Shown: piece by piece, positions 15,811-25,514 of the stretch
How the letters are laid out: each line of letters starts with the position of its first letter
Position numbering within the stretch: position 1 is the first letter of the stretch
Assembly: GCA_949292385.1 (NCBI GenBank)
Contig: CASEZC010000010.1
Coordinates: 7,432 to 71,431 of the forward strand
DNA length: 64,000 nt
Direction: 5' to 3'
From: an uncultured Pseudomonadota bacterium
GTDB lineage: Bacteria > Pseudomonadota > Alphaproteobacteria > Rs-D84
Translations under genes and position numbers: made by a program
Notes under the pieces: generated by a model
Database searches by the model: none
What the model saw: only the letters and a program-made list of their open reading frames with translations
What the model was told of the DNA's origin: nothing

Positions 15811-16350
15811 TTACAAACCCTTTCTAAATTTCACAAAAACTATATTGTCACGAGACTGACCATGCAGTATAAAAGAATGCTTTGCAACACTTTCTTTTTC
15901 AAAGCCTGCCCTTTCTGCGACAGCCTGTGACGCAAGATTCTCTGTATCCACAAGAATTTCTATTCTATCAAATTTTAACACATCAAAAGCAAAATCACTT
16001 AATGCCTTAACCGCCTTGGTCATAATACCACGACCTGTATAATCTTTAGACAACCAATAGCCAATTTCTGCTATTTTATGTGTTTCTGATATAATTCCAA
16101 GTCCTACACTACCAATAATTTCGCCGTTAATTACGATATAATAGCTGCCATTATTAGTTTTAGACGCTTTATTTAAATGGTCATACATATCTTCTGGCTT
16201 TTTTGATGCTTCTACCCATATAAGCCATTTTCCCAAATAATCACGCTGTGCATTAATTATTCCAAACAAATGTTTTGCAACATCAAACGAAGGTTCCACC
16301 TTTTCAAGATTAAAACCGTCACAATTAATTATTTTTGGAAACTCTACCAT
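15811..16350 (-). CDS. GNAT-family N-acetyltransferase (RimJ/RimL-like)
   Basis: 179 aa, GNAT fold motifs (IGYWLSKDYTGRGIMTKA). Confidence 0.75.
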   Translation of the reverse strand: MVEFPKIINCDGFNLEKVEPSFDVAKHLFGIINAQRDYLGKWLIWVEASKKPEDMYDHLNKASKTNNGSYYIVINGEIIGSVGLGIISETHKIAEIGYWLSKDYTGRGIMTKAVKALSDFAFDVLKFDRIEILVDTENLASQAVAERAGFEKESVAKHSFILHGQSRDNIVFVKFRKGL

Positions 16351-16395
16351 TTATATTTCCTTGTTTTCTTATTTTTCAAATTTTATACTAAATAT

Positions 16396-17031
16396 ATGGA
16401 AAAACAAGAAATAAGAACATTTGGTCGCCGACACGGCAAAAAGATATCTGCACGCCAACAATGGCTGATTGATAATATTTTACCCAAAATATCCCCGTTA
16501 AACGAATCGGATAACACGGTAAAAATACTTGAAATAGGCTTTGGCAGTGGCGAGCATTTAAGAGAACTTGCAAATCAAAACCCAGAAAAAATTATAGTTG
16601 GTGCAGAGCCTTTTATGAATGGCGTCGCGTCTTTATTGTCTGCAATTACAAACATAACAACCAACGAAGTTCTATCAGAATATAAAAACATCAGGATTTT
16701 TGCAGACGACGTTCGTGACTTATTACGTAACACCGATTCGAAATTCGAACAAATTTGGGTTCTTCACCCTGACCCATGGCCAAAGGCAAAGCACGAAAAA
16801 CGTAGACTTTTAAATGCAGAATTTTTAAAACTTTTATCTAACCACTTGACCAATTCGGGCGAGATAATAATCGGCACAGACCATTGGGAATATTTTGATT
16901 GGATTCAACAAGAGCTGCAAAAGACGAACTTAAAATTTAGCACGCCAGACATTGCGACTATTCATACCAGATACCAAGAAAAGAACAAAGCTGGAACAAT
17001 CGCGCCAAAGTATTTAGTTATAAAAAATTAA
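16396..17031 (+). CDS. trmB: tRNA (guanine46-N7)-methyltransferase TrmB. Start taken at the internal MEKQEI.
   Basis: SAM-binding LEIGFGSGEHL and TrmB core. The upstream 42 codons of the tracked ORF are low-complexity read-through. Confidence 0.85.
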   Translation: MEKQEIRTFGRRHGKKISARQQWLIDNILPKISPLNESDNTVKILEIGFGSGEHLRELANQNPEKIIVGAEPFMNGVASLLSAITNITTNEVLSEYKNIRIFADDVRDLLRNTDSKFEQIWVLHPDPWPKAKHEKRRLLNAEFLKLLSNHLTNSGEIIIGTDHWEYFDWIQQELQKTNLKFSTPDIATIHTRYQEKNKAGTIAPKYLVIKN

Positions 17032-17702
17032 ACATTCACAAAAAATTTTATTTTATCTAATAACTTTGGCCGCATAGTTTCGACCAATCTATACGCCTGT
17101 TCTATTCTTAAAAAATTTCTTCCAAAAGCAAAATGCAAATCACAATCAAGCTCAGGATTCCATGCATCAAGCGCCGCATATAGTCTTCCTATAAAATCAG
17201 ATTTATCACCCTTGTCTACTGGTAAAGCCAGCAACAAACCAGACGCACGAATTTTACGCAAAGCATCAAAAACATTTTTCCAATCGAATGCGTCCACATC
17301 TGAAATATCTAAGCCAATATACAAACTTTTATTAAAAAACAAATCATCTCTAATAATATATAACTTAGAAACAAAATTACTTAAATCAGATAACCTGATA
17401 AAAATTTGTACCCCATCAGCACCCTGTTTAAAAACATAATTTATATTTGATGTTAATTCAGATATTACATCATCAGATTTTGACTTTTCGCTTAAATAAA
17501 ACCTAGAAAATATATCTACACATTTACCTTCCAGCCAAGGCCATAATACAGAAACAGCCGACGAAACGACAGACACCGCATCAAAATGTTCTGTTACAGC
17601 TTGATTTGCAACATAAGCCAAATCAGTTGAATCCGATTCGGCATTACACCACAATGCCAGCTTATAAGAGTTTTCATCAAGAATATTATCCACGTTTATC
17701 AT
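17028..17702 (-). CDS. Hypothetical protein with divergent DeoC/LacD-aldolase-like (TIM-barrel) features
   Basis: 224 aa. Segments can be aligned by eye to deoxyribose-phosphate aldolase (HFDAVSVVSSAVSV...GKCVDIFSRF ~ FASVCVNP...GVDVCTVIGF; GADGVQIFIRLSDL ~ GATEVDMVINIAAL), but the FVKTSTGF Schiff-base lysine motif is not conserved. Confidence 0.3.
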   Translation of the reverse strand: MINVDNILDENSYKLALWCNAESDSTDLAYVANQAVTEHFDAVSVVSSAVSVLWPWLEGKCVDIFSRFYLSEKSKSDDVISELTSNINYVFKQGADGVQIFIRLSDLSNFVSKLYIIRDDLFFNKSLYIGLDISDVDAFDWKNVFDALRKIRASGLLLALPVDKGDKSDFIGRLYAALDAWNPELDCDLHFAFGRNFLRIEQAYRLVETMRPKLLDKIKFFVNV

Positions 17703-17745
17703 AACTCTTTTTACTTTATCATAAATATGATATAATCAAAGACAA

Positions 17746-18672
17746 ATGAAAATAAGAATTGATAACATATTACTTGGAACCTTATGGTTACTAGCTGTAA
17801 CGCTGGGGGCAAGCTTTTGGTTTAACACAATATTTGGTTTTAATATATTATCCGTAAAACACTGGGAATACGTTTCTTATTTGCAGGCAGCAAAAACACC
17901 TATAAATTCTATGTTTTATGTATCTTTTGTAATAACGGTATTTGTTGCAATCCTAGGCTTATACGTTCTTATACGTCCAAGATTAAGAAAAATTAGACTA
18001 CCAATAGTACGAATATCAAACAATAAACCTGTTCAAACATCACAACCAGAAAAAAACACACAAACAGACGCATCTACACTGGATGTAACTAAAAGCGCTG
18101 AAATACAAAAAACAGTCCCAACCGCCCCAAGTGTTCCACAGCATATAACAGTCAGACCACCTAGGTTAAATTTACCGATAGCAAGCAATATGTCGACACC
18201 TGTAATCAACAAACAACCGACAAACAACACTTTTAACAACCAACCAAAACCAGTAGCCAAGGAATATCCAGAAATACAAGAAATATTTGCATCTGCTGGC
18301 TATACAGTAAAAAAGAACCCTATAATAAACGGCATAAAAACCGCATTACTGGCAATTGGTTCTGACGAAGTGCTCTGGATTGGGGCCGTTGGAATAAAAA
18401 CGACAGAATTAAGAGCAATGATAGATAAACTATCACAAGTATTTTCTGACACGTTGGATGATATATACATAAATATAAATGGTTTTGTTCTTTTTGCACC
18501 AGATGAAGCAACGGCAGAATTTCAAAACATATTAATGTTTAATTCTATAACGCAGTTAAAAGAATACATGGAAACGCGAAAGAATCCAACGCTGCCAGAA
18601 GAAGAGAAAGATAATTTTGATGCATATTCAGAATATATTGATACAGTAATAAACTATATAGGTAAAATTTGA
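17746..18672 (+). CDS. Membrane protein of unknown function: two N-terminal TM helices, Pro/Gln/Thr-rich linker, about 130-aa C-terminal globular domain
   Basis: 308 aa; TM1 LLGTLWLLAVTLGASFWF, TM2 FYVSFVITVFVAILGLYVLI. The C-terminal domain (GYTVKKNPIINGIKTALLAIGSDEVLWIGAVGIKT...) loosely resembles a NERD/YraN restriction-endonuclease-like core. First gene of a four-gene operon. Confidence 0.5.
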   Translation: MKIRIDNILLGTLWLLAVTLGASFWFNTIFGFNILSVKHWEYVSYLQAAKTPINSMFYVSFVITVFVAILGLYVLIRPRLRKIRLPIVRISNNKPVQTSQPEKNTQTDASTLDVTKSAEIQKTVPTAPSVPQHITVRPPRLNLPIASNMSTPVINKQPTNNTFNNQPKPVAKEYPEIQEIFASAGYTVKKNPIINGIKTALLAIGSDEVLWIGAVGIKTTELRAMIDKLSQVFSDTLDDIYININGFVLFAPDEATAEFQNILMFNSITQLKEYMETRKNPTLPEEEKDNFDAYSEYIDTVINYIGKI

Positions 18673-19178
18673 TGCAATTAACAAAAGAAGCAGCTGAGCA
18701 AAAATTATCTGAATTAAAAATGGACGATTTGCCATTAATAAACATAACGCCCCAAAAAGCCAGCTTGTCTTCTGATTGGTTTATAAAATATAAAAAAGCA
18801 TGTCATGAATTCGCCTTATCTTTAACAGATTCAATAGAAGAACTTGCTTTTATGAATTTGTCTCAAGACGACTTTATGAATTTAATTATGGGCAAAAAGA
18901 TACCTACAAACTTGTCAATAAGATTTAGAATACCTTTACTTTATGGTGGCGAAATAAGTCCAGATAATATGTTTATGTGTTGGACATTTCCTAATTCTTA
19001 CAGATTAGACAAATTTATTGCGGACCAAGCAGGCAGTCAAACAATATGGTTACCTAACCCTACAAAAAAGATATATATTTCTGCACACACAGCATCTGGC
19101 GGGGATGGTGGTAACGCAACGTCTGACAGACTGTCCCAGCTGGCCGCACAACTTTCACAAAATCGTGGCATGGAATAA
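18669..19178 (+). CDS. Hypothetical protein (169 aa), no signal peptide
   Basis: ATGA start/stop overlap with the upstream gene. No family recognised by eye; C-terminal Gly/Ser-rich segment (HTASGGDGGNATS). Confidence 0.45.
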   Translation: MMQLTKEAAEQKLSELKMDDLPLINITPQKASLSSDWFIKYKKACHEFALSLTDSIEELAFMNLSQDDFMNLIMGKKIPTNLSIRFRIPLLYGGEISPDNMFMCWTFPNSYRLDKFIADQAGSQTIWLPNPTKKIYISAHTASGGDGGNATSDRLSQLAAQLSQNRGME

Positions 19179-19189
19179 GAGAAACAAAA

Positions 19190-19618
19190 ATGACCCAAGA
19201 AGAATTCTTACTTGAAATGAAAAAAAACGGTGCAACTTTTGCCCCTGCTTCATCTGGTCAATCAATAAATTTAGCAAACACCAAATTGCAACAAAATCAA
19301 TCTGCAATGCTGCCTGAATTTATGATAAATTTATATCAAAAAACAGGCGGAATAAATCTTGGTAACGGTTATATATTTGGTCCAAGCGAATTTTCTGTAG
19401 ACGGTAAATTCCCTGTTCCAGATTTATTAAAAGTAAACAAAGATTTTAATAAAAACATGCGTGGAAAAACGATATTCGGTCGCAACGATTTATTCTTTTT
19501 TGCGTTTGATTGCTTTGGCACATGTTTTATGCTGAACAATCTGACATTAAACCCATTAAAAAAGTATGATGATTGTTACAGAGCATTAACAGATTGTTTA
19601 ATTGCAGGAAAAAACTAA
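19190..19618 (+). CDS. SUKH-1 / SMI1-KNR4-like protein (immunity-protein-type fold)
   Basis: INLANTKLQQNQSAMLPEFMINLYQKTGG matches the SMI1/KNR4 consensus (I.e.e.kLg..LPedykefl.kyNGG); distal aromatic/Asp motif (RNDLFFFAFDCFGTCFMLN). Confidence 0.5.
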   Translation: MTQEEFLLEMKKNGATFAPASSGQSINLANTKLQQNQSAMLPEFMINLYQKTGGINLGNGYIFGPSEFSVDGKFPVPDLLKVNKDFNKNMRGKTIFGRNDLFFFAFDCFGTCFMLNNLTLNPLKKYDDCYRALTDCLIAGKN

Positions 19619-19620
19619 AC

Positions 19621-19839
19621 ATGAAAAAACTATCAGTATCTTTATCTGGCCATCAAACAAGTATATCATTAGAAAAAGAATTCATAGATTGCCTGCATGA
19701 ACTTGCGAACGAAAAGAAATGTTCTGTTGCATCAATAATATCAGAAATAGATTCTGCACGTAACCCAGACACAAATTTATCATCTGCAATACGTATATGG
19801 ATTTTAAAAGAAATACAAAATAAAAAAACCGCTATATAG
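19621..19839 (+). CDS. Small ribbon-helix-helix DNA-binding protein (alphaproteobacterial RHH_4-like family)
   Basis: MKKLSVSLSGHQTSISLEKEFIDCLHELANEKKCSVASIISEIDSARNPDTNLSSAIRIWILKEI matches the conserved S.SLSGH.TSISLE..F...L...A...G.S...LI..ID..R...NLSSA.R pattern. AGGA Shine-Dalgarno upstream; last gene of the operon. Confidence 0.6.
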   Translation: MKKLSVSLSGHQTSISLEKEFIDCLHELANEKKCSVASIISEIDSARNPDTNLSSAIRIWILKEIQNKKTAI

Positions 19840-19845
19840 CGGTTT
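19828..19845. terminator. Bidirectional rho-independent terminator (palindrome AACCGCTATATAGCGGTT)
   Basis: Perfect 18-nt palindrome flanked by an A-run (19822-19827) and TTTT (19846-19849). Lies between the RHH gene (+) stop and the ybeY-lnt (-) stop. Confidence 0.8.
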
Positions 19846-19852
19846 TCTGGTA

Positions 19853-21862
19853 TTATTTTAACTTATTAAACTTTCCCAAAGGCACACATAAAAATATAGA
19901 AAACAATAAAATTATAATCATCCACCCATCACGTCCGATAGTCCTATATACAGTATTATGCGCCCCCCAGACAAATCCATCCAAACAACCAGCCTGTCCA
20001 ACAGATAAGTAAGATATAATTTCCCCGTCAGACGAAATAAAAGCACTTATACCTGAATAATTGGCCCGCACAATCGGCATACCTGATTCTATTGCATATC
20101 TGCGAACCATATCAAGATGCTGATAAGTTCCAGGTGTATTACCAAACCAAGTATCATTAGTTATATTTATAATCATATCTGGGTTCCGCTGACTTGGAAT
20201 CAAGGAATCAGAAAAAATAATTTCATAACAAATGGCCGGTGCAAAAGCGAACGAACCTGTATTTAAATTTAAGCTCATAAGTTCCGCCCCTGCCCCCTTA
20301 GACAGTTGCCCAGGTGTCGGGATAATATCACCTAACGGTCTGTATTCGCCAAAAGGTACTAAATGCGATTTACTGTAAATCTTATTTATTTTTCCTGAAT
20401 CATCAGCAATAACCATAGAGTTAAACATCTTACCAGCAGAATAATATTGCGCCCCTATTATAACAGGTTTATTCAGGTATTCCGCAATCGGCATACTATC
20501 GCCATCTAAAACAACAAAAGGATATGATGTTTCTGGAAATACCAACAAATCAAAATCACCTGGTGCAGATGCAAGTTCAACCAAGTTTCTTATATTAATT
20601 TCAGCATTTCTCAAAGCCTCTTGTCTTGAATGAGTAGCTTTCTGTACGGCGCTTTCTGCCGGCTGCACGATACGAATAACATAATTATTATCTGATTGTA
20701 AATGCGCAGCTTGGATATTTTTATAACCAACAAACGCACCCAAAGCAAATAAGAAACAGAAGATAAAGAACACCGCCCAAGAAAGTTTTGACTTATAATT
20801 AGTCAGCAATTCTACGACGGCCGCCACTAATCCTATTGTTATAAAAGAAAGCCCCAATGCCCCCCACAACGACATAGAATTTGCAATTACTGGAAACGGC
20901 ATAAAAATATTAGCCACAGGGTTCCAAGGGAATCCCGTCAAAAACCATTCTCTCAACCACAAAACAAACGTCCAAAACGAAGCAAATAAAATCGGTCTAC
21001 ATGGCGGAAACGTGCACATACGTGAAATTAACACAAAAGGAATTGCGAATATAACCCCACCTAAAATTCCTATACCAAACAGTGCTGGAACAGTCCATAT
21101 TGCAAACTCAGCTGCAAGTTCTGGAACCACATATATAGAGTTTAAGACCCACCAAAACATCGCCATTGAATACGCAACACTAAAAGGCAAAATTCTTAAA
21201 AAAGATTTTATCCAACTTACCTTATTAGCACGCACAACAAATTTATAAGCAGCAGCAACAGCTATTAATGTTGCCCACCACATATTAAAAGGCGCAAATC
21301 CCAAAGAAGCTACAGCACCTAAAGCGAACAAAATAATATTTTGAAAAAGTCCATCTTCTTTTATTTTTATCTTTTTAAAAAATGATAAAAACTTACTTCC
21401 AGGACAACAAGAAGAATCGCTGCATATAGGCAAATCCGGCATATATGGATTTTTTATACCAAGTTTTTTTAATATTTTTATTTCTGTTTTTTCCATTACT
21501 TCTGCTTCGTCATCTTTTATATGATCATAACCTAATAGATGTAATATCCCATGAACAACCATATGTGCAGTATGTTCTTCAACAGAAATATTTAAATCTT
21601 TTGCTTCACGTTTTACTGTATCCAAAGAAATAAAAATATCACCCAACAAAATATCATCTTGCAATTCAAACGATAATACATTCGTAGCTTTATCAATACT
21701 ACGATAATCTTTATTCAGCTTATGAATTTCTTTATCATCAATTAACGTTATAGAAACTTCAGAGTTTTTATAATTCCTACCAACAACTGCATTTGCAATT
21801 TTTTCAAAATCAATTTTATACTTCTTCCAACGAGAATCTTGATAATTAATATAAACTTTCAT
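19853..21862 (-). CDS. ybeY-lnt: In-frame fusion (or same-frame overlap) of endoribonuclease YbeY (N-terminal, about 140 aa) with apolipoprotein N-acyltransferase Lnt (C-terminal, about 528 aa)
   Basis: Residues 1-140 carry the YbeY H..HG.LHL.GYDH motif (HMVVHGILHLLGYDH). From Met141 (coords 21442-21440, MPDLPI...) onward it is a multi-TM Lnt with a CN-hydrolase domain (E...K...C catalytic region, AICYEIIF). No stop codon separates the two parts. Confidence 0.75.
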   Translation of the reverse strand: MKVYINYQDSRWKKYKIDFEKIANAVVGRNYKNSEVSITLIDDKEIHKLNKDYRSIDKATNVLSFELQDDILLGDIFISLDTVKREAKDLNISVEEHTAHMVVHGILHLLGYDHIKDDEAEVMEKTEIKILKKLGIKNPYMPDLPICSDSSCCPGSKFLSFFKKIKIKEDGLFQNIILFALGAVASLGFAPFNMWWATLIAVAAAYKFVVRANKVSWIKSFLRILPFSVAYSMAMFWWVLNSIYVVPELAAEFAIWTVPALFGIGILGGVIFAIPFVLISRMCTFPPCRPILFASFWTFVLWLREWFLTGFPWNPVANIFMPFPVIANSMSLWGALGLSFITIGLVAAVVELLTNYKSKLSWAVFFIFCFLFALGAFVGYKNIQAAHLQSDNNYVIRIVQPAESAVQKATHSRQEALRNAEINIRNLVELASAPGDFDLLVFPETSYPFVVLDGDSMPIAEYLNKPVIIGAQYYSAGKMFNSMVIADDSGKINKIYSKSHLVPFGEYRPLGDIIPTPGQLSKGAGAELMSLNLNTGSFAFAPAICYEIIFSDSLIPSQRNPDMIINITNDTWFGNTPGTYQHLDMVRRYAIESGMPIVRANYSGISAFISSDGEIISYLSVGQAGCLDGFVWGAHNTVYRTIGRDGWMIIILLFSIFLCVPLGKFNKLK

Positions 21863-21873
21863 TTTTTATTTTC

Positions 21874-23784
21874 CTATATATCTTTAACGTTGTTCTTTAA
21901 CAAATTAACGATATCTTTTTCATTAGATTTTTTATTAACAATTTCCATTGCATCACTAAAAGACAAAGTTTTAGATTTCATTTTTTCTTTAAGTCTTTCT
22001 ACATCTTTTTTTACATTAAGATTTCCATTTGCAACAGACAATTCATAATTCTTTAAAGCCTTTTCCAAATCTCCGATTTGTTCGTATGCAAAACCAGCAT
22101 TATACTGAGCAGCCGCATACTGGCTTTTATCGCCAATTCTATGAAGAATTTCTTTAGCTTGATTTATAGCCTCTTGATACATACCAAGTTTATTATAAGT
22201 TGCAGCCAAGTCATTATATAATAACGCATTGTCTTTATGAACAGATATAAGTTCTTTATACTTGATTTCTGCCTTTTTATAATCTCCACTTTTATAACAA
22301 TTTAAAGCCTCTTCATATGCATCGGCATATTCTAGGGTGTAAGTACTTTTTTCTATTTTTTCTTGTTTTTTTGTTTGTCTGACTAAAGCTTTACCACTAA
22401 ACTCGCATTCCCCCATTTCACAATATGCCAAAACATCGGCTGGCAAATAATCTTTAACACATTTCCAATGTTTTATAGGACGACCATTCTTATCAATAGG
22501 ATTATTCAGCCACATTTTAAATTTTGCATAAGTATCCTTGTTAACTTTTCTATCACCGGATTTTCCAGTAAAGAAAGCTTCTTCTTTCTGTCCCATATAG
22601 CAAAAGAATTCATACATTCCATTTACCGGACAATTTAATAACATATCTGGTGTTATATCACCAGACAGCACTCCTGCCTCTAGCCAACGGCGCCAATATA
22701 GCCCCTTGCCACCGGCCAAGAAACCACCCAACTTATCCGACACGTCTGATTTTTTATCATACCCGAGCCACACCTTACCAAAACTAGTTGGCTTAACTAT
22801 CGGATATTTTTGAAACAACTTTATTACTAAATCATCAGGTACTGCATATCCATATTCTTTGTATATCCTTCTTAATTCAGTGAAACGATTCTTGACGTTT
22901 TTATCTTGTTTATTTTCTATCAATTTAGAATATGAATTATATATAATAGACCCCATTCCCAGGGCTTCTTTAGTATCATTCACATCTACATAATCACTTG
23001 CAACATCATAACAATATAAAACGAAATAAGTTTCACCCTCCTCTAAATGCCAACGTGCCAACTCATAGGCTTCTTCCGTAGTGATAGGTTTTGTTTTCAT
23101 AGTTACCCTTGAACCATCTTTTAGCATGGTAGAGCCAAAACCTATTGTAGGAATCCCCTTTGAATCAAGATAAGGTACATGCAGCCCAGTTTCAGGGTCC
23201 ACTTTAACGCCCTCTTTTGCAATTAAATCAGCAATAAGATAAGGTGTTATAGGACGCATTTTTTTCAAGAATTCCGCATATGTACCCTTTATTCGTTTAT
23301 TTTCTTCTCTGTCTTTTCGCCACTCTTTATAAGCATCTACTGCCAAAGGCCCTTTTTCAACGGCTGCCTTTCCTCCAAACCCTAAAACCCCTAACAGCAT
23401 ATACCACGATACATACGCAGATAAATTAGGATTACTTTTAGAAAAGCGTCTTAAAGTCTGAGATTGAAATTTTTTCTTTTCGTTTAAATTTATTTTCTTA
23501 TTTTTTTCTTCAAGCTTTCTTAAAAAGACATTATCCAAAGCCAACCATCTGGCCATAGTTAGTAAAAACTGCGCACCGCCAGCAGTCAACCAAGCTGCCC
23601 CTTTTGCAGTTTCCAAACCTACCAACATTGCTGAATCTTTATAAGCAGCATATTTTTCGTCATCGCCCTTTTTCTGTCGTCTTTTTTTTACAAAATCTCG
23701 CGGGCTTTGCTTTTCTATAAGTTTACGTAATTTTTCTGCAAGTTGTTCAGGTTTAGCAACAGCCTTTCTAAAAGAATCTTTCAT
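21874..23784 (-). CDS. Membrane-anchored GH24 (T4-lysozyme-like) muramidase with a C-terminal TPR-repeat region
   Basis: 636 aa. Charged N-terminal segment of about 110 aa, one TM (YVSWYMLLGVLGFGG), then PETGLHVPYLDSKGIPTIGFGST, which aligns residue-for-residue with the T4 lysozyme E11-x8-D20-x5-T26 catalytic region ([21 protein letters not shown]). Cys-containing middle region; at least 3 TPR repeats near the C-terminus (YNKLGMYQEAINQAKEIL, AQYNAGFAYEQIGDLEKALKNYELS). AAGGA Shine-Dalgarno 8 nt upstream. Confidence 0.6.
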   Translation of the reverse strand: MKDSFRKAVAKPEQLAEKLRKLIEKQSPRDFVKKRRQKKGDDEKYAAYKDSAMLVGLETAKGAAWLTAGGAQFLLTMARWLALDNVFLRKLEEKNKKINLNEKKKFQSQTLRRFSKSNPNLSAYVSWYMLLGVLGFGGKAAVEKGPLAVDAYKEWRKDREENKRIKGTYAEFLKKMRPITPYLIADLIAKEGVKVDPETGLHVPYLDSKGIPTIGFGSTMLKDGSRVTMKTKPITTEEAYELARWHLEEGETYFVLYCYDVASDYVDVNDTKEALGMGSIIYNSYSKLIENKQDKNVKNRFTELRRIYKEYGYAVPDDLVIKLFQKYPIVKPTSFGKVWLGYDKKSDVSDKLGGFLAGGKGLYWRRWLEAGVLSGDITPDMLLNCPVNGMYEFFCYMGQKEEAFFTGKSGDRKVNKDTYAKFKMWLNNPIDKNGRPIKHWKCVKDYLPADVLAYCEMGECEFSGKALVRQTKKQEKIEKSTYTLEYADAYEEALNCYKSGDYKKAEIKYKELISVHKDNALLYNDLAATYNKLGMYQEAINQAKEILHRIGDKSQYAAAQYNAGFAYEQIGDLEKALKNYELSVANGNLNVKKDVERLKEKMKSKTLSFSDAMEIVNKKSNEKDIVNLLKNNVKDI

Positions 23785-23793
23785 GTTCGTTCC

Positions 23794-24156
23794 TTACTTT
23801 TTCCCAAGACCTGTTTTCTTAGCTATTTTTGATCTGCGTTCAGAATATTTAGGTGCAACAAAGGGATAATCATCTGGCAGTCCCCATTTTTCTCGATATT
23901 GCTCTGGTGTCATATTAAACTTTCTTTTCAAATACCGGCGCAACATAATGTGCCAAGTACCATCTTCCAAGCATTGAATTTTATCTGGTTGTACAGAATT
24001 TGCGATTTTTTGTGGGCTGATTGTTGTGCCACGCAAGCTTTCCCTGGCCTCTTTAACTGCTGCCTGCATAGAAAGCTTGGGATTATTAGCCATAGCTGCT
24101 GCTGCCAAGTTTGCAACAGCCAATGCAAACTCTGAATTTTTATTTTCACTTACCAA
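23794..24156 (-). CDS. mucR: Ros/MucR-family transcriptional regulator with a non-canonical (Cys-poor) zinc-finger region
   Basis: C-terminal TPEQYREKWGLPDDYPFVAPKYSERRSKIAKKTGLG is the Ros/MucR signature. The finger reads IQCLEDGTWHIMLRRYLKRK instead of CLECG...KRHL..HH, so the second Cys and two His positions are substituted. Confidence 0.7.
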   Translation of the reverse strand: MVSENKNSEFALAVANLAAAAMANNPKLSMQAAVKEARESLRGTTISPQKIANSVQPDKIQCLEDGTWHIMLRRYLKRKFNMTPEQYREKWGLPDDYPFVAPKYSERRSKIAKKTGLGKK

Positions 24157-24233: not shown

Positions 24234-25514
24234 ATGAAAAACGAGAACAGACCTCTTGCCGACTTAATGCGCCCTTCAGTAATAGAAGACGTAGTCGGAC
24301 AAACACAATTACTTGGTGAAAACGGTCTTGTTCGTCGCATGGTAGATAACCATAAATTATCAAATCTTATATTATGGGGACCTCCAGGATGCGGAAAAAC
24401 TACCATTGCGCGCGCCCTTGCAAAATCCGTTGACATGGACTTCGTTCCAATGTCCGCTGTATTTTCCGGCACGTCAGATATAAAGAAAGCAATGGAAGCA
24501 GCAAAAATGAATCGCGAAATCGGCAGAAACACTTTGCTGTTCATAGATGAAATACACAGATTTAATAAAACACAACAAGACACATTGTTGCCATATCTGG
24601 AAGACGGCACGGTTGTTTTTATGGGTGCAACGACAGAAAACCCAAGTTTTAATTTAAACAACGCGTTGCTTTCCCGCTGTCACGTTGGCGTATTACAACC
24701 ATTATCAACAGAAGATTTATTAACGTTAACACAACGTGCAGAAAAATTTTTAGATAAAAAATTACCACTGGATGATTCCGCAAGAATACACCTTGCAAAG
24801 ATGGCAGACGGCGATGCCCGCTTCTTATTAAATACAATAGAATATTTATTATCAGCAAATTTTAAAAAAGATTTAAGCCCAGACAAATTAGATGAAGCAA
24901 TACAAAAGCGTTCACCCCTATCTGACAAACATGGTGACGAACACTATAATCTAATATCAGCCGTGCATAAATCACTTCGCGCCAGCGATACGGATGCAGC
25001 TTTATATTGGACTGCCAGAATGATGACATCTGGTCAAGACCCAATGTATTTATTTCGCAGACTCAGTAGATTTGCAATGGAAGACATAGGACTTGCAGAC
25101 CCAAACGCTATGCAAATGGCATTAACTGCATGGCAGCTTTATGAAAGAATGGGCAGCCCCGAAGGCGACCTTGCGCTGACAGAACTTGTAATATACCTTG
25201 GCACCGCACCGAAAAGCACAGCTAATTATCGCGCACAAAAAGCTGCATATCAAGCAGCCCAAGAAACAGGTAGCTTAATGCCACCAAAGAACATATTAAA
25301 CGCCCCAACAAAAATGATGAAAGAATTAGGCTATGGCGCAGGATACATTTACGAACCAGATACAAAATCCGGTTTCAGCGGTCAAAACTGCTTTCCAGAA
25401 AAAATGGAAAGACAGACGTTTTACCAACCAATAGAACGTGGCTTTGAACGAGAAATAAAAAAGCGCCTAGAATACTGGAATTCGTTAAGAAAAAAATTGA
25501 ACAAAAATAATTAA
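24234..25514 (+). CDS. rarA: Replication-associated recombination protein A (RarA/MgsA AAA+ ATPase)
   Basis: Walker A GPPGCGKTT, AAA+ and MgsA C-terminal domains. Confidence 0.9.
   Translation: MKNENRPLADLMRPSVIEDVVGQTQLLGENGLVRRMVDNHKLSNLILWGPPGCGKTTIARALAKSVDMDFVPMSAVFSGTSDIKKAMEAAKMNREIGRNTLLFIDEIHRFNKTQQDTLLPYLEDGTVVFMGATTENPSFNLNNALLSRCHVGVLQPLSTEDLLTLTQRAEKFLDKKLPLDDSARIHLAKMADGDARFLLNTIEYLLSANFKKDLSPDKLDEAIQKRSPLSDKHGDEHYNLISAVHKSLRASDTDAALYWTARMMTSGQDPMYLFRRLSRFAMEDIGLADPNAMQMALTAWQLYERMGSPEGDLALTELVIYLGTAPKSTANYRAQKAAYQAAQETGSLMPPKNILNAPTKMMKELGYGAGYIYEPDTKSGFSGQNCFPEKMERQTFYQPIERGFEREIKKRLEYWNSLRKKLNKNN

Follow-up and report, generated by a model that had tools for sequence, protein, structure and literature searches.

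Introduction

The omega-epsilon-zeta system is a tripartite toxin-antitoxin system in which a separate ribbon-helix-helix (RHH) protein, omega, serves as the repressor. In Legionella, the type IV coupling complex (DotL-DotM-DotN-IcmSW) is of the VirD4/TraG type. Fusions of Hcp and HNH domains have been proven to act as T6SS DNase effectors, and cognate immunity proteins accompany them (PMC6730261). In E. coli, YhhZ combines a T6SS_HCP domain with a weak HNH match, and yrhA lies directly downstream of yhhZ with a 4-nt overlap. [quoted passage not shown]

Toxin-immunity pairs are usually fast-evolving, mobile weapons. Here we describe a pair that is instead fixed in the core genome of a whole order, in a four-gene operon of a small-genome gut alphaproteobacterium of the order Rs-D84 ("Ca. 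Enterousia"; genomes <1 Mb). The operon lies in a window of 64,000 nucleotides, which is the whole stretch of DNA that we analyzed. We favor the reading, with a probability of about 0.5, that the operon encodes an exapted complex derived from a toxin-immunity pair, sitting at the cytoplasmic face of the inner membrane and serving a core function rather than conflict.

Results

Gene boundaries and conservation of the operon

An earlier, sequence-only reading of this DNA had delimited four co-directional ORFs, and all four are confirmed as genes where it placed them (G1 to G4; Table 1). They are not chance ORFs, since 86 to 87 of 87 related loci have them intact and identically ordered, with dN/dS of 0.11 to 0.20. 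The proposed gaps of 11 nt between G2 and G3 and of 2 nt between G3 and G4 stand, but the proposed 4-nt overlap of G1 and G2 does not. It is 1 nt, because homologues and public gene calls begin at the ATG (MQL..., 168 aa) of the junction sequence TGATG; a 4-nt overlap requires a TTG start at 18669. The G1 stop and the G2 start overlap in most loci, and translational coupling of the two genes is conserved. The ATG of G4 falls within a longer ORF that starts with TTG. The perfect palindromic terminator said to close the operon is present as well, A and T runs included. A terminator scan scored this hairpin as a minus-strand terminator with 11 pairs; lying between the convergent G4 and ybeY::lnt, it is probably bidirectional. 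Housekeeping genes flank the operon (gltX, trmB, ybeY::lnt, mucR, and rarA). Gene packing is tight across the whole window.

Table 1. Features of the operon and its surroundings (positions in the 64-kb window)
Feature	Position	Strand	Description
G0	17028-17702	-	224 aa, divergent from the operon, family not known
Control element	17707-17736	.	CTTTTTACTTTATCATAAATATGATATAAT, 30 nt; two back-to-back extended -10 promoters
G1	17746-18672	+	308-aa inner-membrane protein
G1 residues 1-80	17746-17985	+	Conserved two-helix membrane hairpin; loop motif FGFNIFSxxHWxYLxYLQA
G1 residues 81-169	17986-18252	+	Variable T/P/N/Q-rich linker with conserved RPPRL (18154-18168)
G1 residues 170-308	18253-18669	+	Cytoplasmic PD-(D/E)xK/NERD-like fold, no canonical catalytic motif
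G2	18672-19178	+	168-aa cytoplasmic protein; YhhZ-type HNH toxin-like domain without catalytic histidines
G2 residues 80-117	18909-19022	+	Beta-beta-alpha (HNH-like) core, NLSIRFRIPLLYGGEISPDNMFMCWTFPNS
G2 residues 142-160	19095-19151	+	C-terminal tail, ASGGDGGNATSDRLSQLAA; low model confidence, then helix
G3	19190-19618	+	142 aa, YrhA family (immunity-type, SUKH-like)
G4	19621-19839	+	72 aa, RHH_4 ribbon-helix-helix protein
Hairpin	19823-19848	.	Palindrome ACCGCTATATAGCGGT between A-run and T-run; overlaps the G4 stop codon

The linkage of the four genes, which the sequence-only reading had left to be checked in relatives, is conserved in order across related loci (85 to 87 of 87): G1 and G3 are each present in 87, G4 in 86, and the divergent gene G0 in 85, with order and strands constant. 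A one-genome-per-species collection contains 302 pattern-matching stretches, of which 261 encode a G2 relative; the 80 loci listed come from 80 different contigs. The locus is single-copy and syntenic throughout Rs-D84, whose genomes are 0.7 to 1.0 Mb. Values of dN/dS are 0.11 for G2, 0.14 for G3 and G4, and 0.20 for G1, a level similar to that of the neighbors TrmB (0.10), YbeY-Lnt (0.20), and GltX (0.08), although all are rough because dS is near saturation (1.2 to 1.9).

G4 had been read as a small RHH DNA-binding protein. Indeed, it scores 78.9 bits with PF13467 (RHH_4), for which the cut-off is 25 (E = 2.9e-22), and the match spans positions 2 to 66 of 67. G4 follows G3 in 86 of the 87 related loci and also in the more distant operons L090, L094, and L102. 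RHH_4 is a pan-alphaproteobacterial family, found elsewhere after SspB-DUF4169, fumC-DUF4169, and cobST. This tendency of RHH_4 to follow unrelated genes, together with the tight packing of the window, would suit four unrelated, lineage-specific genes that share a compact operon and have no joint function, an arrangement common in streamlined genomes. We consider this very improbable, given that the pairing of G2 and G3 is kept from E. coli yhhZ-yrhA to all alphaproteobacterial versions, that the G1/G2/G3 trio is seen in five or more different chromosomal settings, and that the G1 and G2 reading frames so often overlap at their junction.

A conserved control element shared with the divergent gene G0

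Two further observations of the sequence-only reading hold: the intergenic region ahead of G1 is 43 bp long (17703-17745), and it has no Shine-Dalgarno sequence for G1. It contains a 30-nt element in which the extended -10 of G1 reads TGATATAAT and that of G0, on the other strand, reads TGATAAAGT; together, the two -10 elements form the inverted repeat TATCA-N6-TGATA. Of 80 unique Rs-D84 loci, 75 have the element without gaps, at a mean identity of 93.6%, compared with a consensus frequency of about 59% at third codon positions beside it. It ends 8 to 10 nt before the G1 ATG in 72 of the 75 loci that hold it, and 9 nt upstream in the window. Since the element ends 9 nt from the ATG, the G1 mRNA is probably leaderless, and a leaderless mRNA from this back-to-back element would account for the missing Shine-Dalgarno sequence. 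We infer that the element is a promoter and possibly an operator too; its palindrome is fully accounted for by the two promoters, and an operator is unnecessary. In the distant operons L090 and L094, which also contain RHH_4, the element is not conserved.

G0 shares this control element with the operon. It is adjacent and divergent in 85 of the 87 related loci, and also in L090, with a dN/dS of 0.28. We found no match for it in Pfam, NCBIfam, PADLOC, or PDB. It had been described as DeoC-like; however, TIGR00126 reaches only E = 0.089, and hhalign against E. coli DeoC gives a probability of 0.6%. With no significant profile match, a DeoC/aldolase family is unsupported for G0.

The G2-G3 pair

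The G2 family aligns with the HNH toxin domain at the C terminus of E. coli YhhZ (residues 253 to 387, 132 columns) with an hhalign probability of 98.2% (E = 5e-14). We mapped its HNH positions against YhhZ and colicin E9, the sequence of which we checked. R84 of G2 corresponds to H102 of colicin E9, F85 to H103, N99 to N118, and N108 to H127. Both the general-base His and the two metal-ligand His are thus substituted, leaving no His at any of the three catalytic/metal positions and only Asn99 kept. N99 is invariant; R84 is invariant within Rs-D84, and relatives linked to VirD4 have His at this position. A non-canonical active site is possible, since G2 retains invariant polar residues (R84, R86, N99, D113, and Q119) and a near-invariant H139. 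As a stand-alone protein of 168 aa, G2 shows no Pfam domain, no match to a named family, and no trafficking or secretion domain. Teneurin-2 is among the structural neighbors of the G2 model. The ancestor of G2 is a YhhZ-type HNH DNase toxin domain. Its C-terminal tail is missing from YhhZ, since the alignment stops at G2 residue 141. Within the tail, pLDDT is below 50 at residues 143 to 147, and G146 and G147 are invariant, with D152 nearly so, throughout the G2 family, VirD4-linked members included. The tail is probably a docking motif.

For G3, the YrhA family model NF038335 matched 14 of 16 diverse members (best E = 1.5e-20). G3 of the window matches it over nearly its full length at 24.1 bits (E = 2.8e-5), below the curated cut-off of 55 bits. 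In hhalign, G3 matched a reconstructed E. coli YrhA with a probability of 93.5% (E = 2e-7), and G3 genes always lie immediately downstream of G2-like genes. G3 descends from a YrhA-type immunity partner of a YhhZ-type toxin. The sequence-only reading had proposed a SUKH/SMI1-like immunity protein: the immunity type is borne out through the YrhA family, but the SUKH assignment finds only sub-threshold Pfam matches. G3 of the window scores 15 bits with SMI1_KNR4 (PF09346) against a gathering cut-off of 25.4, its orthologues show weak matches to SMI1_KNR4 in 11 of 34 and to SUKH_6 in 4 of 34, and distant members match SUKH_5, SUKH_6, or SMI1_KNR4 at E = 0.006 to 0.09. There is no PDB sequence match for G3, and E. 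coli YrhA itself has no Pfam match.

The toxin-immunity ancestry of G2 and G3 is therefore supported. We then considered that the operon might still be an addiction module of the toxin-antitoxin or effector-immunity kind, in which G2 would be toxic without its HNH histidines, G3 would neutralize it, the RHH_4 protein would repress the operon in the manner of omega, and G1 would be an accessory. Two tightly spaced genes, the first homologous to a toxin domain and the second to its immunity partner, are what such a module would show, as are the small RHH protein within the operon and the invariant Arg, Asn, and Asp kept in G2; furthermore, the His-84 relatives adjoin a type IV coupling protein, which fits secreted effectors. 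We nevertheless regard a working module as unlikely. Apart from the replacement of all three histidines, the locus is not patchy, mobile, multi-copy, or polymorphic: its position and order are constant in 86 to 87 of 87 loci at a dN/dS of 0.11 to 0.14, and the operon is kept in genomes as small as these. G1 to G3 have neither a PADLOC match nor a toxin-antitoxin Pfam family, and the conserved coupling of G1 and G2 is not predicted by a simple module.

G1, a membrane protein with a nuclease-like domain

The architecture described for G1 by the sequence-only reading is there: two hydrophobic segments (residues ~8 to 26 and 51 to 80), a linker, and a conserved C-terminal domain of 139 aa. The linker is disordered and varies in length and sequence among species around the invariant residues R137, P138, and L141. 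Residues 77 to 95 contain seven K/R and no D/E, which places the C-terminal part in the cytoplasm by the positive-inside rule. G1 homologues form 319 clusters, and none of the 120 listed among them has a Pfam domain. G1 matches no named family. The same is true of G2 and G0.

The C-terminal domain has the alpha-beta-beta-beta-alpha-beta fold of restriction endonuclease-like proteins. The D...(D/E)xK motif is absent from it, and strands beta2/beta3 read LLAIG/LWIGAVG. K189, E208, D235, and D253 are kept, and here too a non-canonical active site is possible. NERD (PF08378) did not match G1 of the window; three of 10 distant homologues gave E = 0.016 to 0.03, below the Pfam threshold. Both nuclease-type folds of the operon, the G1 C-terminal domain and G2, thus lack canonical catalytic residues.

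Nuclease-like folds at a membrane raise the idea of anti-phage defense, with G1 as a membrane-anchored sensor or effector, G2 as its HNH-like partner, and a regulator. Fold matches of the two domains include the defense effectors Can2, Card1, Cap4, Shedu, and Cas8-HNH, and a housekeeping annotation is lacking for all four proteins. However, the catalytic motifs are missing from both domains, and with the defense models of PADLOC-DB 2.0, the check proposed earlier, we found no match for G0, G1, G2, or G3 and only a marginal one of G4 to REase_II (E = 0.014, 12.9 bits). Defense islands vary, whereas this operon is fixed and syntenic across the order, under purifying selection at housekeeping levels. 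We consider a defense function very improbable.

G1-like genes beside VirD4-type coupling ATPases

In other uncultured Alphaproteobacteria, a VirD4-type coupling ATPase lies directly downstream of G1-like genes in 62 of 62 loci, and G2/G3-like genes lie directly downstream of the ATPase in 32 of 53. hhalign relates G1 to the genes directly upstream of these ATPases with a probability of 99.3% (E = 3e-20), and a G1 profile built from Rs-D84 alone retrieves the VirD4-linked proteins. Our searches of the 64-kb window and of the 87 related 12-kb loci of Rs-D84 turned up no VirD4 homologue, and no secretion genes were found among the scanned ORFs of the window. Any tie between the Rs-D84 operon and a coupling ATPase would therefore be one of ancestry or of genomic context. 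Four divergent lineages, with differing flanks, have G1, G2, G3, and RHH_4 without the ATPase. All four of these operons carry RHH_4, and all lack the His kept by the VirD4-linked versions. The presence of RHH_4 in place of the ATPase, together with the loss of the His, suggests a functional shift.

This genomic context and the G1 homology also fit G1, G2, and G3 being adaptor or accessory subunits of a type IV coupling complex, with VirD4/VirB genes elsewhere in the genome, that would recruit substrates for contact with a partner cell. Such an arrangement would loosely resemble that of DotM, DotN, and IcmSW around DotL. Dependence on a partner cell has been proposed for Rs-D84 bacteria (PMC12306168). 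We consider this unlikely. Apart from the missing ATPase gene in the window and the 87 loci, in none of 80 metagenomic VirD4 loci are there housekeeping genes with identity at the Rs-D84 level, secretion systems go unmentioned in the Rs-D84 genome paper, and the four operons with RHH_4 instead of an ATPase point to a changed function.

Discussion

The sequence-only reading had proposed a toxin-immunity, contact-dependent, or defense-type module. Its effector/immunity element survives as the descent of G2 and G3, but a working module of any of these kinds is unsupported, because G2 lacks the HNH histidines and a trafficking domain, the G1 C-terminal domain is cytoplasmic and lacks the PD-(D/E)xK motif, and there is no convincing PADLOC match to a locus that is single-copy, syntenic, and under purifying selection. 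Since the cutting residues are gone and the operon is present in every sampled relative, a weapon has apparently been reused for a core cell function.

In such an exapted complex, G3 would bind G2 as an immunity protein binds a toxin, and G1 would recruit the pair to the membrane. The invariant G2 tail (GGDGGNATxDRLSQ) and the RPPRL motif of G1 are candidate docking elements. The dead nuclease folds may serve to bind nucleic acid or a translocation substrate, as they possibly did already when working beside the coupling ATPase. Transcription would start at a leaderless extended -10 promoter, back to back with that of G0, and its likely regulator is the RHH_4 protein encoded last in the operon.

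A bolder version, which we hold tentatively and think rather unlikely, is that G1, G2, and G3, joined in relatives by the VirD4-type ATPase, form an undescribed inner-membrane machine built from inactivated conflict parts that handles DNA or protein substrates. In partner-dependent Rs-D84, it would be an essential core apparatus, ATPase-independent or re-wired. Possible roles of such a machine are acquisition or exchange of nucleic acid with a partner cell and tethering of the chromosome to the membrane.

If exaptation is correct, the operon would show plainly, for bacteria, how a weapon can be domesticated into cell machinery; the teneurins are the example known from eukaryotes. This study defines three protein families without a Pfam match (G0, G1, and G2) and shows that, in uncultured gut Alphaproteobacteria, G1-like proteins have a conserved partnership with a VirD4-type coupling ATPase. 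The operon also offers a tractable experimental entry to an uncultured, probably partner-dependent gut lineage.

Among known systems, omega-epsilon-zeta shares with the operon a toxin-like gene, a neutralizer-like gene, and a small RHH protein in one transcription unit. Its gene order is different, however, and it is mobile, whereas the operon is vertically inherited, has a G2 without catalytic residues, and includes the additional membrane protein G1. The likeness to VirD4/TraG complexes lies in the relatives, where a two-helix G1-like membrane protein and small soluble G2/G3-like proteins flank the ATPase; DotM, DotN, and IcmSW have no sequence relationship to the operon proteins, and the ATPase gene is absent from the operon and was not found in the lineage. 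Membrane-anchored, nuclease-related NERD/PD-(D/E)xK proteins (PF08378) have a fold in common with the G1 C-terminal domain. Distant G1-like proteins retain the GxW...W...SP insert along with their weak PF08378 matches, but every such match is below the Pfam threshold, D...(D/E)xK is missing, and G1 of Rs-D84 has lost the NERD-like insert of about 28 aa.

Among the closest known systems is E. coli YhhZ-YrhA, where the toxin domain is homologous to G2 and YrhA to G3, in the same gene order and nearly overlapping. YhhZ keeps the HH...H histidines (NVHHKLS...PYH), whereas G2 has SIRFRIP...PNS, no Hcp or other delivery domain, and an invariant C-terminal tail that is missing from YhhZ. YhhZ-YrhA is an island cassette; G2-G3 is part of a fixed core operon with a membrane protein and an RHH gene. 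In its apparent fate, G2 resembles the teneurin domain: both have the HNH toxin fold and have lost the catalytic residues, and G2 would likewise be kept for a non-toxic role. The teneurin domain, however, belongs to a giant RHS-type protein of eukaryotes and is extracellular, whereas G2 is small, bacterial, and cytoplasmic and still has its immunity-type partner beside it.

Architecture of the operon and its flanks

The genes G1 to G4 run in the same direction and are tightly packed. The 11-nt and 2-nt intergenic gaps described in a sequence-only reading of this DNA are present, as are the 43-bp region that separates G1 from the divergent gene G0 and, where the operon ends, the perfect palindrome ACCGCTATATAGCGGT. 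G1 and G2 do overlap, by 1 nt at a TGATG junction rather than by the 4 nt first given, because homologues and public gene calls begin G2 at the junction ATG; a 4-nt overlap requires an upstream TTG as the start of G2. Since the palindrome separates G4 from the convergent ybeY::lnt gene and scores as a minus-strand terminator in our scan, it is probably a terminator acting in both directions.

Features of the operon and its surroundings (window positions)
Feature	Coordinates	Strand	Length
trmB, mechanical ORF	16270-17031	+	
trmB, start in public gene calls	16396	+	211 aa
G0	17028-17702	-	224 aa
Divergent intergenic region	17703-17745		43 bp
Conserved intergenic element	17707-17736		30 nt
G1	17746-18672	+	308 aa
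G2	18672-19178	+	168 aa
G3	19190-19618	+	142 aa
G4	19621-19839	+	72 aa
ybeY::lnt	19853-21862	-	669 aa
TPR-repeat protein	21874-23784	-	636 aa
MucR/Ros-type regulator	23794-24156	-	
RarA	24234-25514	+	

The other genes of the window are housekeeping genes (FtsK, SecD, MutL, BipA, RecJ, PBP and others). Among 87 related loci of the order Rs-D84, the operon is usually flanked by trmB on the upstream side (83 loci) and by ybeY::lnt on the downstream side (82 loci). The mechanical trmB ORF runs into an upstream GNAT acetyltransferase gene. The fused gene encodes the rRNA-maturation RNase YbeY and the apolipoprotein N-acyltransferase Lnt in one ORF (Pfam YbeY, LNT_N and CN_hydrolase) and also occurs in L090, a distant RHH_4-containing operon; ybeY and lnt are usually separate genes within one operon. 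The stretch between G4 and ybeY::lnt is a variable insertion site in L022, L024, L036, L037, L055-L057, L064, L065, L080 and L084. The ORFs found there (240-670 aa) have N-termini that resemble signal peptides, contain regions rich in Cys or in Gln/Ala, and may encode surface or secreted proteins. The TPR-repeat protein, whose orthologues give a faint phage-lysozyme match, the MucR/Ros-type regulator and RarA are kept as a trio beside the operon in many relatives.

The operon is a conserved core locus in Rs-D84

Rs-D84 is an order of reduced-genome gut bacteria that are probably partner-dependent (PMC12306168). G2 has 484 homologous clusters; among the 120 listed, all are 166-176 aa long, show 58-87% identity (the identical match excepted) and come from uncultured Alphaproteobacteria or "Rickettsiales" gut MAGs. 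When each GTDB species was scanned through one genome, 261 pattern-matching stretches were confirmed to hold a G2 relative. The 80 loci returned include many that bear the name Candidatus Enterousia, as well as chromosome-level records 0.72 and 0.96 Mb long. By tblastn across the 87 loci we found G1 in 87, G3 in 87, G4 in 86 and G0 in 85, with constant gene order and strands wherever found. Nei-Gojobori dN/dS over 153-216 pairs, with dS near saturation and the values therefore rough, was 0.11 for G2, 0.14 for G3 and for G4, 0.20 for G1 and 0.28 for G0, and 0.10 for TrmB, 0.20 for YbeY-Lnt and 0.08 for GltX. Though these ratios are rough, it is clear that the operon genes are core, vertically inherited and under purifying selection, and that they form no island.

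G1 is a putative membrane anchor

The three-part architecture first described for G1 holds: two hydrophobic segments (about residues 8-26 and 51-80) are followed by a T/P/N/Q-rich linker and then by a C-terminal domain, G1C (residues 170-308), which is conserved over 139 aa. Because a stretch with 7 K/R and zero acidic residues comes after the second segment, the positive-inside rule places everything beyond it on the predicted cytoplasmic side. G1C has LLAIG and LWIGAVG as its beta2 and beta3 strands, and the D...(D/E)xK motif, which we looked for in this domain, is absent. K189, E208, D235 and D253 are invariant polar residues. Scans of G1 against Pfam, NCBIfam, PADLOC and PHROGs gave nothing usable, and a profile search of the G1-like alignment against PDB sequences gave chance-level matches only. 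We considered a ZipA-like protein (membrane anchor, P/Q linker, globular domain); fold matches gave this no support.

G2 and G3 resemble a toxin and its immunity protein

G3 had been read as a SUKH/SMI1-like protein of immunity type. It may be SUKH-like, with Pfam SUKH matches that are all sub-threshold: 15 bits for the window protein, SMI1_KNR4 in 11/34 and SUKH_6 in 4/34 orthologues, and E = 0.006-0.09 for distant members against SUKH_5, SUKH_6 or SMI1_KNR4. The immunity-type kinship stands. NF038335 (YrhA family) is matched by 14 of 16 diverse G3 members, with a best E of 1.5e-20, and hhalign of G3 with a reconstructed E. coli YrhA gives 93.5% (E = 2e-7). Membership of G3 in the YrhA family is solid as a sequence assignment. 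The best 120 hits of a word-indexed search with the G3 alignment are close family members only, none Pfam-labelled, and profile searches of the G3 and broad-G3 alignments against PDB sequences gave chance-level matches only.

For G2, no family model matched (Pfam, NCBIfam, PADLOC and PHROGs gave nothing usable), profile searches with the G2 and broad-G2 alignments against PDB sequences again stayed at chance level, and among 1.84 billion representatives an exhaustive HMM search turned up only 75 relatives, the distant ones being 180-430 aa long. Residues 253-387 of E. coli K-12 YhhZ match the broad G2 profile with 98.2% probability (E = 5e-14, 132 columns); the narrow profile gives a non-significant 0.5%, and significance comes only with the distant relatives added. 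YhhZ itself combines an Hcp domain with a weak match to HNH, is annotated "putative endonuclease", and is directly followed by yrhA with a 4-nt overlap. [quoted passage not shown] Because G2 resembles the toxin region of YhhZ, G3 resembles YrhA and the two E. coli genes adjoin, the suspected effector-immunity pairing holds as ancestry: by profile comparison, G2 and G3 descend from an HNH-toxin/immunity pair.

The HNH motif of colicin E9, checked against the PDB, is E-L-H102-H103-D-K-P ... G-G ... N118 ... H127. In this enzyme H103 acts as the general base, the metal is bound by H102, H127 and H131, and N118 has a structural role. The corresponding motif is NVHHKLSLDDGGTNDFENLVLIENEPYH in YhhZ, NVHLKIPLEYGGTNDFSNLVLIQTHPYH in G2-like proteins of VirD4-linked loci and SIRFRIPLLYGGEISPDNMFMCWTFPNS in the window G2. 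Anchored on Pro and Gly-Gly, R84 maps to H102, F85 to H103, N99 to N118 and N108 to H127. All three His positions are thus replaced in the window, and the general-base His is absent in every alphaproteobacterial G2-family member compared. Because these positions are replaced in G2 and the D...(D/E)xK motif is absent from G1C, both nuclease-type folds are very probably catalytically dead. Given the invariant polar residues of G1 and those of G2 (R84, R86, N99, D113, Q119), either protein may have a non-canonical active site.

These residues and the toxin ancestry would suit an addiction or effector module that is toxic still, an alternative we find unlikely. The first proposal, a possible toxin-immunity or defence-type module, was not borne out: we looked for the hallmarks of a functioning module of the polymorphic-toxin, toxin-antitoxin or defence kind (residues for catalysis, a domain for delivery, polymorphism with mobility, defence-model matches) and they are missing. 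A defence system is the least likely alternative of all, and the PADLOC scan returned no convincing match to known defence models. Teneurins are a precedent for an inactive HNH toxin domain retained in another role (PMC3482391).

Related genes flank a VirD4-type ATPase in other lineages

Distant G2-like genes were traced to their source contigs and their neighbourhoods read. In five unrelated chromosomal contexts (L089, L091, L092, L093, L095) the order is one or two G1-like genes, a VirD4/TraG-type coupling ATPase (PF02534, PF10412 and PF12696), a G2-like and a G3-like gene, with no other annotated secretion genes within 6-10 kb. Local profile searches at these loci gave 4e-14 to 1e-5 for G3-like and 2e-9 and 4e-5 for G1-like proteins. 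A G1 profile built from Rs-D84 only detects the L093 and L095 proteins (9e-10 and 1e-5), and hhalign of Rs-D84 G1 with ten distant G1-likes gives 99.3% over the full length (E = 3e-20). The genes upstream of VirD4 in L091, taken by size for virB8-B11, are G1-like paralogues.

Scanning metagenomes with the alignment of the ATPase yielded 80 loci at 53-69% identity. In all 62 with enough sequence, a G1-like gene is directly upstream of the ATPase; G2-like and G3-like genes are directly downstream in 32 of 53, the others having ordinary housekeeping genes there. Hosts of this ATPase subfamily (L103-L182 and the five loci above) are uncultured gut and rumen Alphaproteobacteria, and at the loci examined for content it sits amid housekeeping genes with no recognised secretion genes near. 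We found no literature relevant to VirD4 with SUKH and HNH, or to Rs-D84 and secretion systems, and no paper describing the G1/G2/G3 trio or its VirD4 link.

This association could mean that G1 to G3 serve as accessory subunits in a coupling complex, with the ATPase encoded at another place in the genome. Neither the window nor any of the 87 loci from Rs-D84 contains a VirD4 homologue, and the 80 metagenome loci carry no housekeeping genes at Rs-D84-level identity; we regard this reading as improbable too.

The ATPase-free order G1-G2-G3-RHH_4 is found in Rs-D84 and in three other divergent lineages (L090, L094, L102) with differing flanks, and G2 position 84 is there R, K or M, never His. G4 is indeed a small RHH protein (RHH_4, PF13467, 78.9 bits). 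Because RHH_4 trails unrelated genes in other Alphaproteobacteria, namely SspB-DUF4169 (S. meliloti, L097), fumC-DUF4169 (Paracoccus, L098) and cobS-cobT (Sphingomonas), it is a general small DNA-binding protein of this class and no toxin-antitoxin marker. Such company would suit an operon of convenience, its genes without joint function. All four lineages keep G3 followed by RHH_4 in different surroundings; RHH_4 as a mere ancestral neighbour, a reading prompted by the AsmA gene beside it in both S. meliloti and L094, was thus rejected, and the linkage looks functional. An operon of convenience is very unlikely. The S. meliloti order is SspB-DUF4169-RHH_4-AsmA, and a convergent AsmA-family gene also follows RHH_4 in L094; this hints at an old conserved neighbourhood around the regulator. 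Our literature search on PF13467 (RHH_4) yielded nothing relevant.

The intergenic element and G0

The 43-bp region contains a 30-nt element, CTTTTTACTTTATCAYAAATATGATAYAAT. Of 80 unique Rs-D84 loci, 75 have it without gaps and with 93.6% identity, and 19 of 30 positions are invariant or divergent in one locus only. In 72 of these loci, 8-10 nt separate its end from the G1 ATG, and adjoining third codon positions reach a consensus frequency of only ~59%. It is 94% conserved in the same position in L004-L087, although the species' proteins are only 40-60% identical. The element reads as two putative back-to-back extended -10 promoters, TGATAYAAT for G1 and TGATAAAGT on the opposite strand for G0, each 9-10 nt from its own start codon. 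G1 lacks a Shine-Dalgarno sequence, as reported; a -10 so near the ATG would explain this through leaderless or near-leaderless transcripts, which we infer for G1 and G0. The start sites predicted in this way fall near 17743-17746 on the plus strand and near 17712 on the minus strand. The inverted repeat TATCA-N6-TGATA was considered as an RHH operator; the two extended -10 elements explain it in full, and it is unconserved in L090 and L094. RHH_4 may still bind the 30-nt element as a candidate operator.

G0 is conserved and matches nothing in Pfam, NCBIfam, PADLOC or PHROGs; its profile search against PDB sequences gave chance-level matches only. The DeoC likeness once claimed for it is below significance. 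It consists of local motifs (ISVxP, GAxGAQVF, SDFVGR), with Gly at the position of the DeoC Schiff-base Lys, and G0 may be another catalytically altered fold.

A domesticated toxin pair as the best reading

Our best reading, at a probability of about one half, is that the operon encodes an exapted complex located at the membrane, on its cytoplasmic face. In it, G3 would hold G2, and G1 would tether both; the G2 tail GGDGGNATxDRLSQ, which is invariant and modelled with low confidence, and the RPPRL motif in the linker of G1 are candidate docking elements. As binding modules, the dead nuclease folds would have kept a role that goes back to joint action with a VirD4-type ATPase. Such an operon would be a clear example, open to testing, of a weapon domesticated in a gut lineage that is poorly known and has a reduced genome.

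In our Pfam and NCBIfam scans, G0, G1 and G2 matched no family. The two Aravind-group toxin papers do not mention YhhZ or YrhA. The parts are of known kinds: an HNH toxin, YrhA/SUKH-type immunity, a NERD-like fold and RHH_4. G2 differs from YhhZ in its GGDGGNATxDRLSQ tail, which the E. coli protein lacks.
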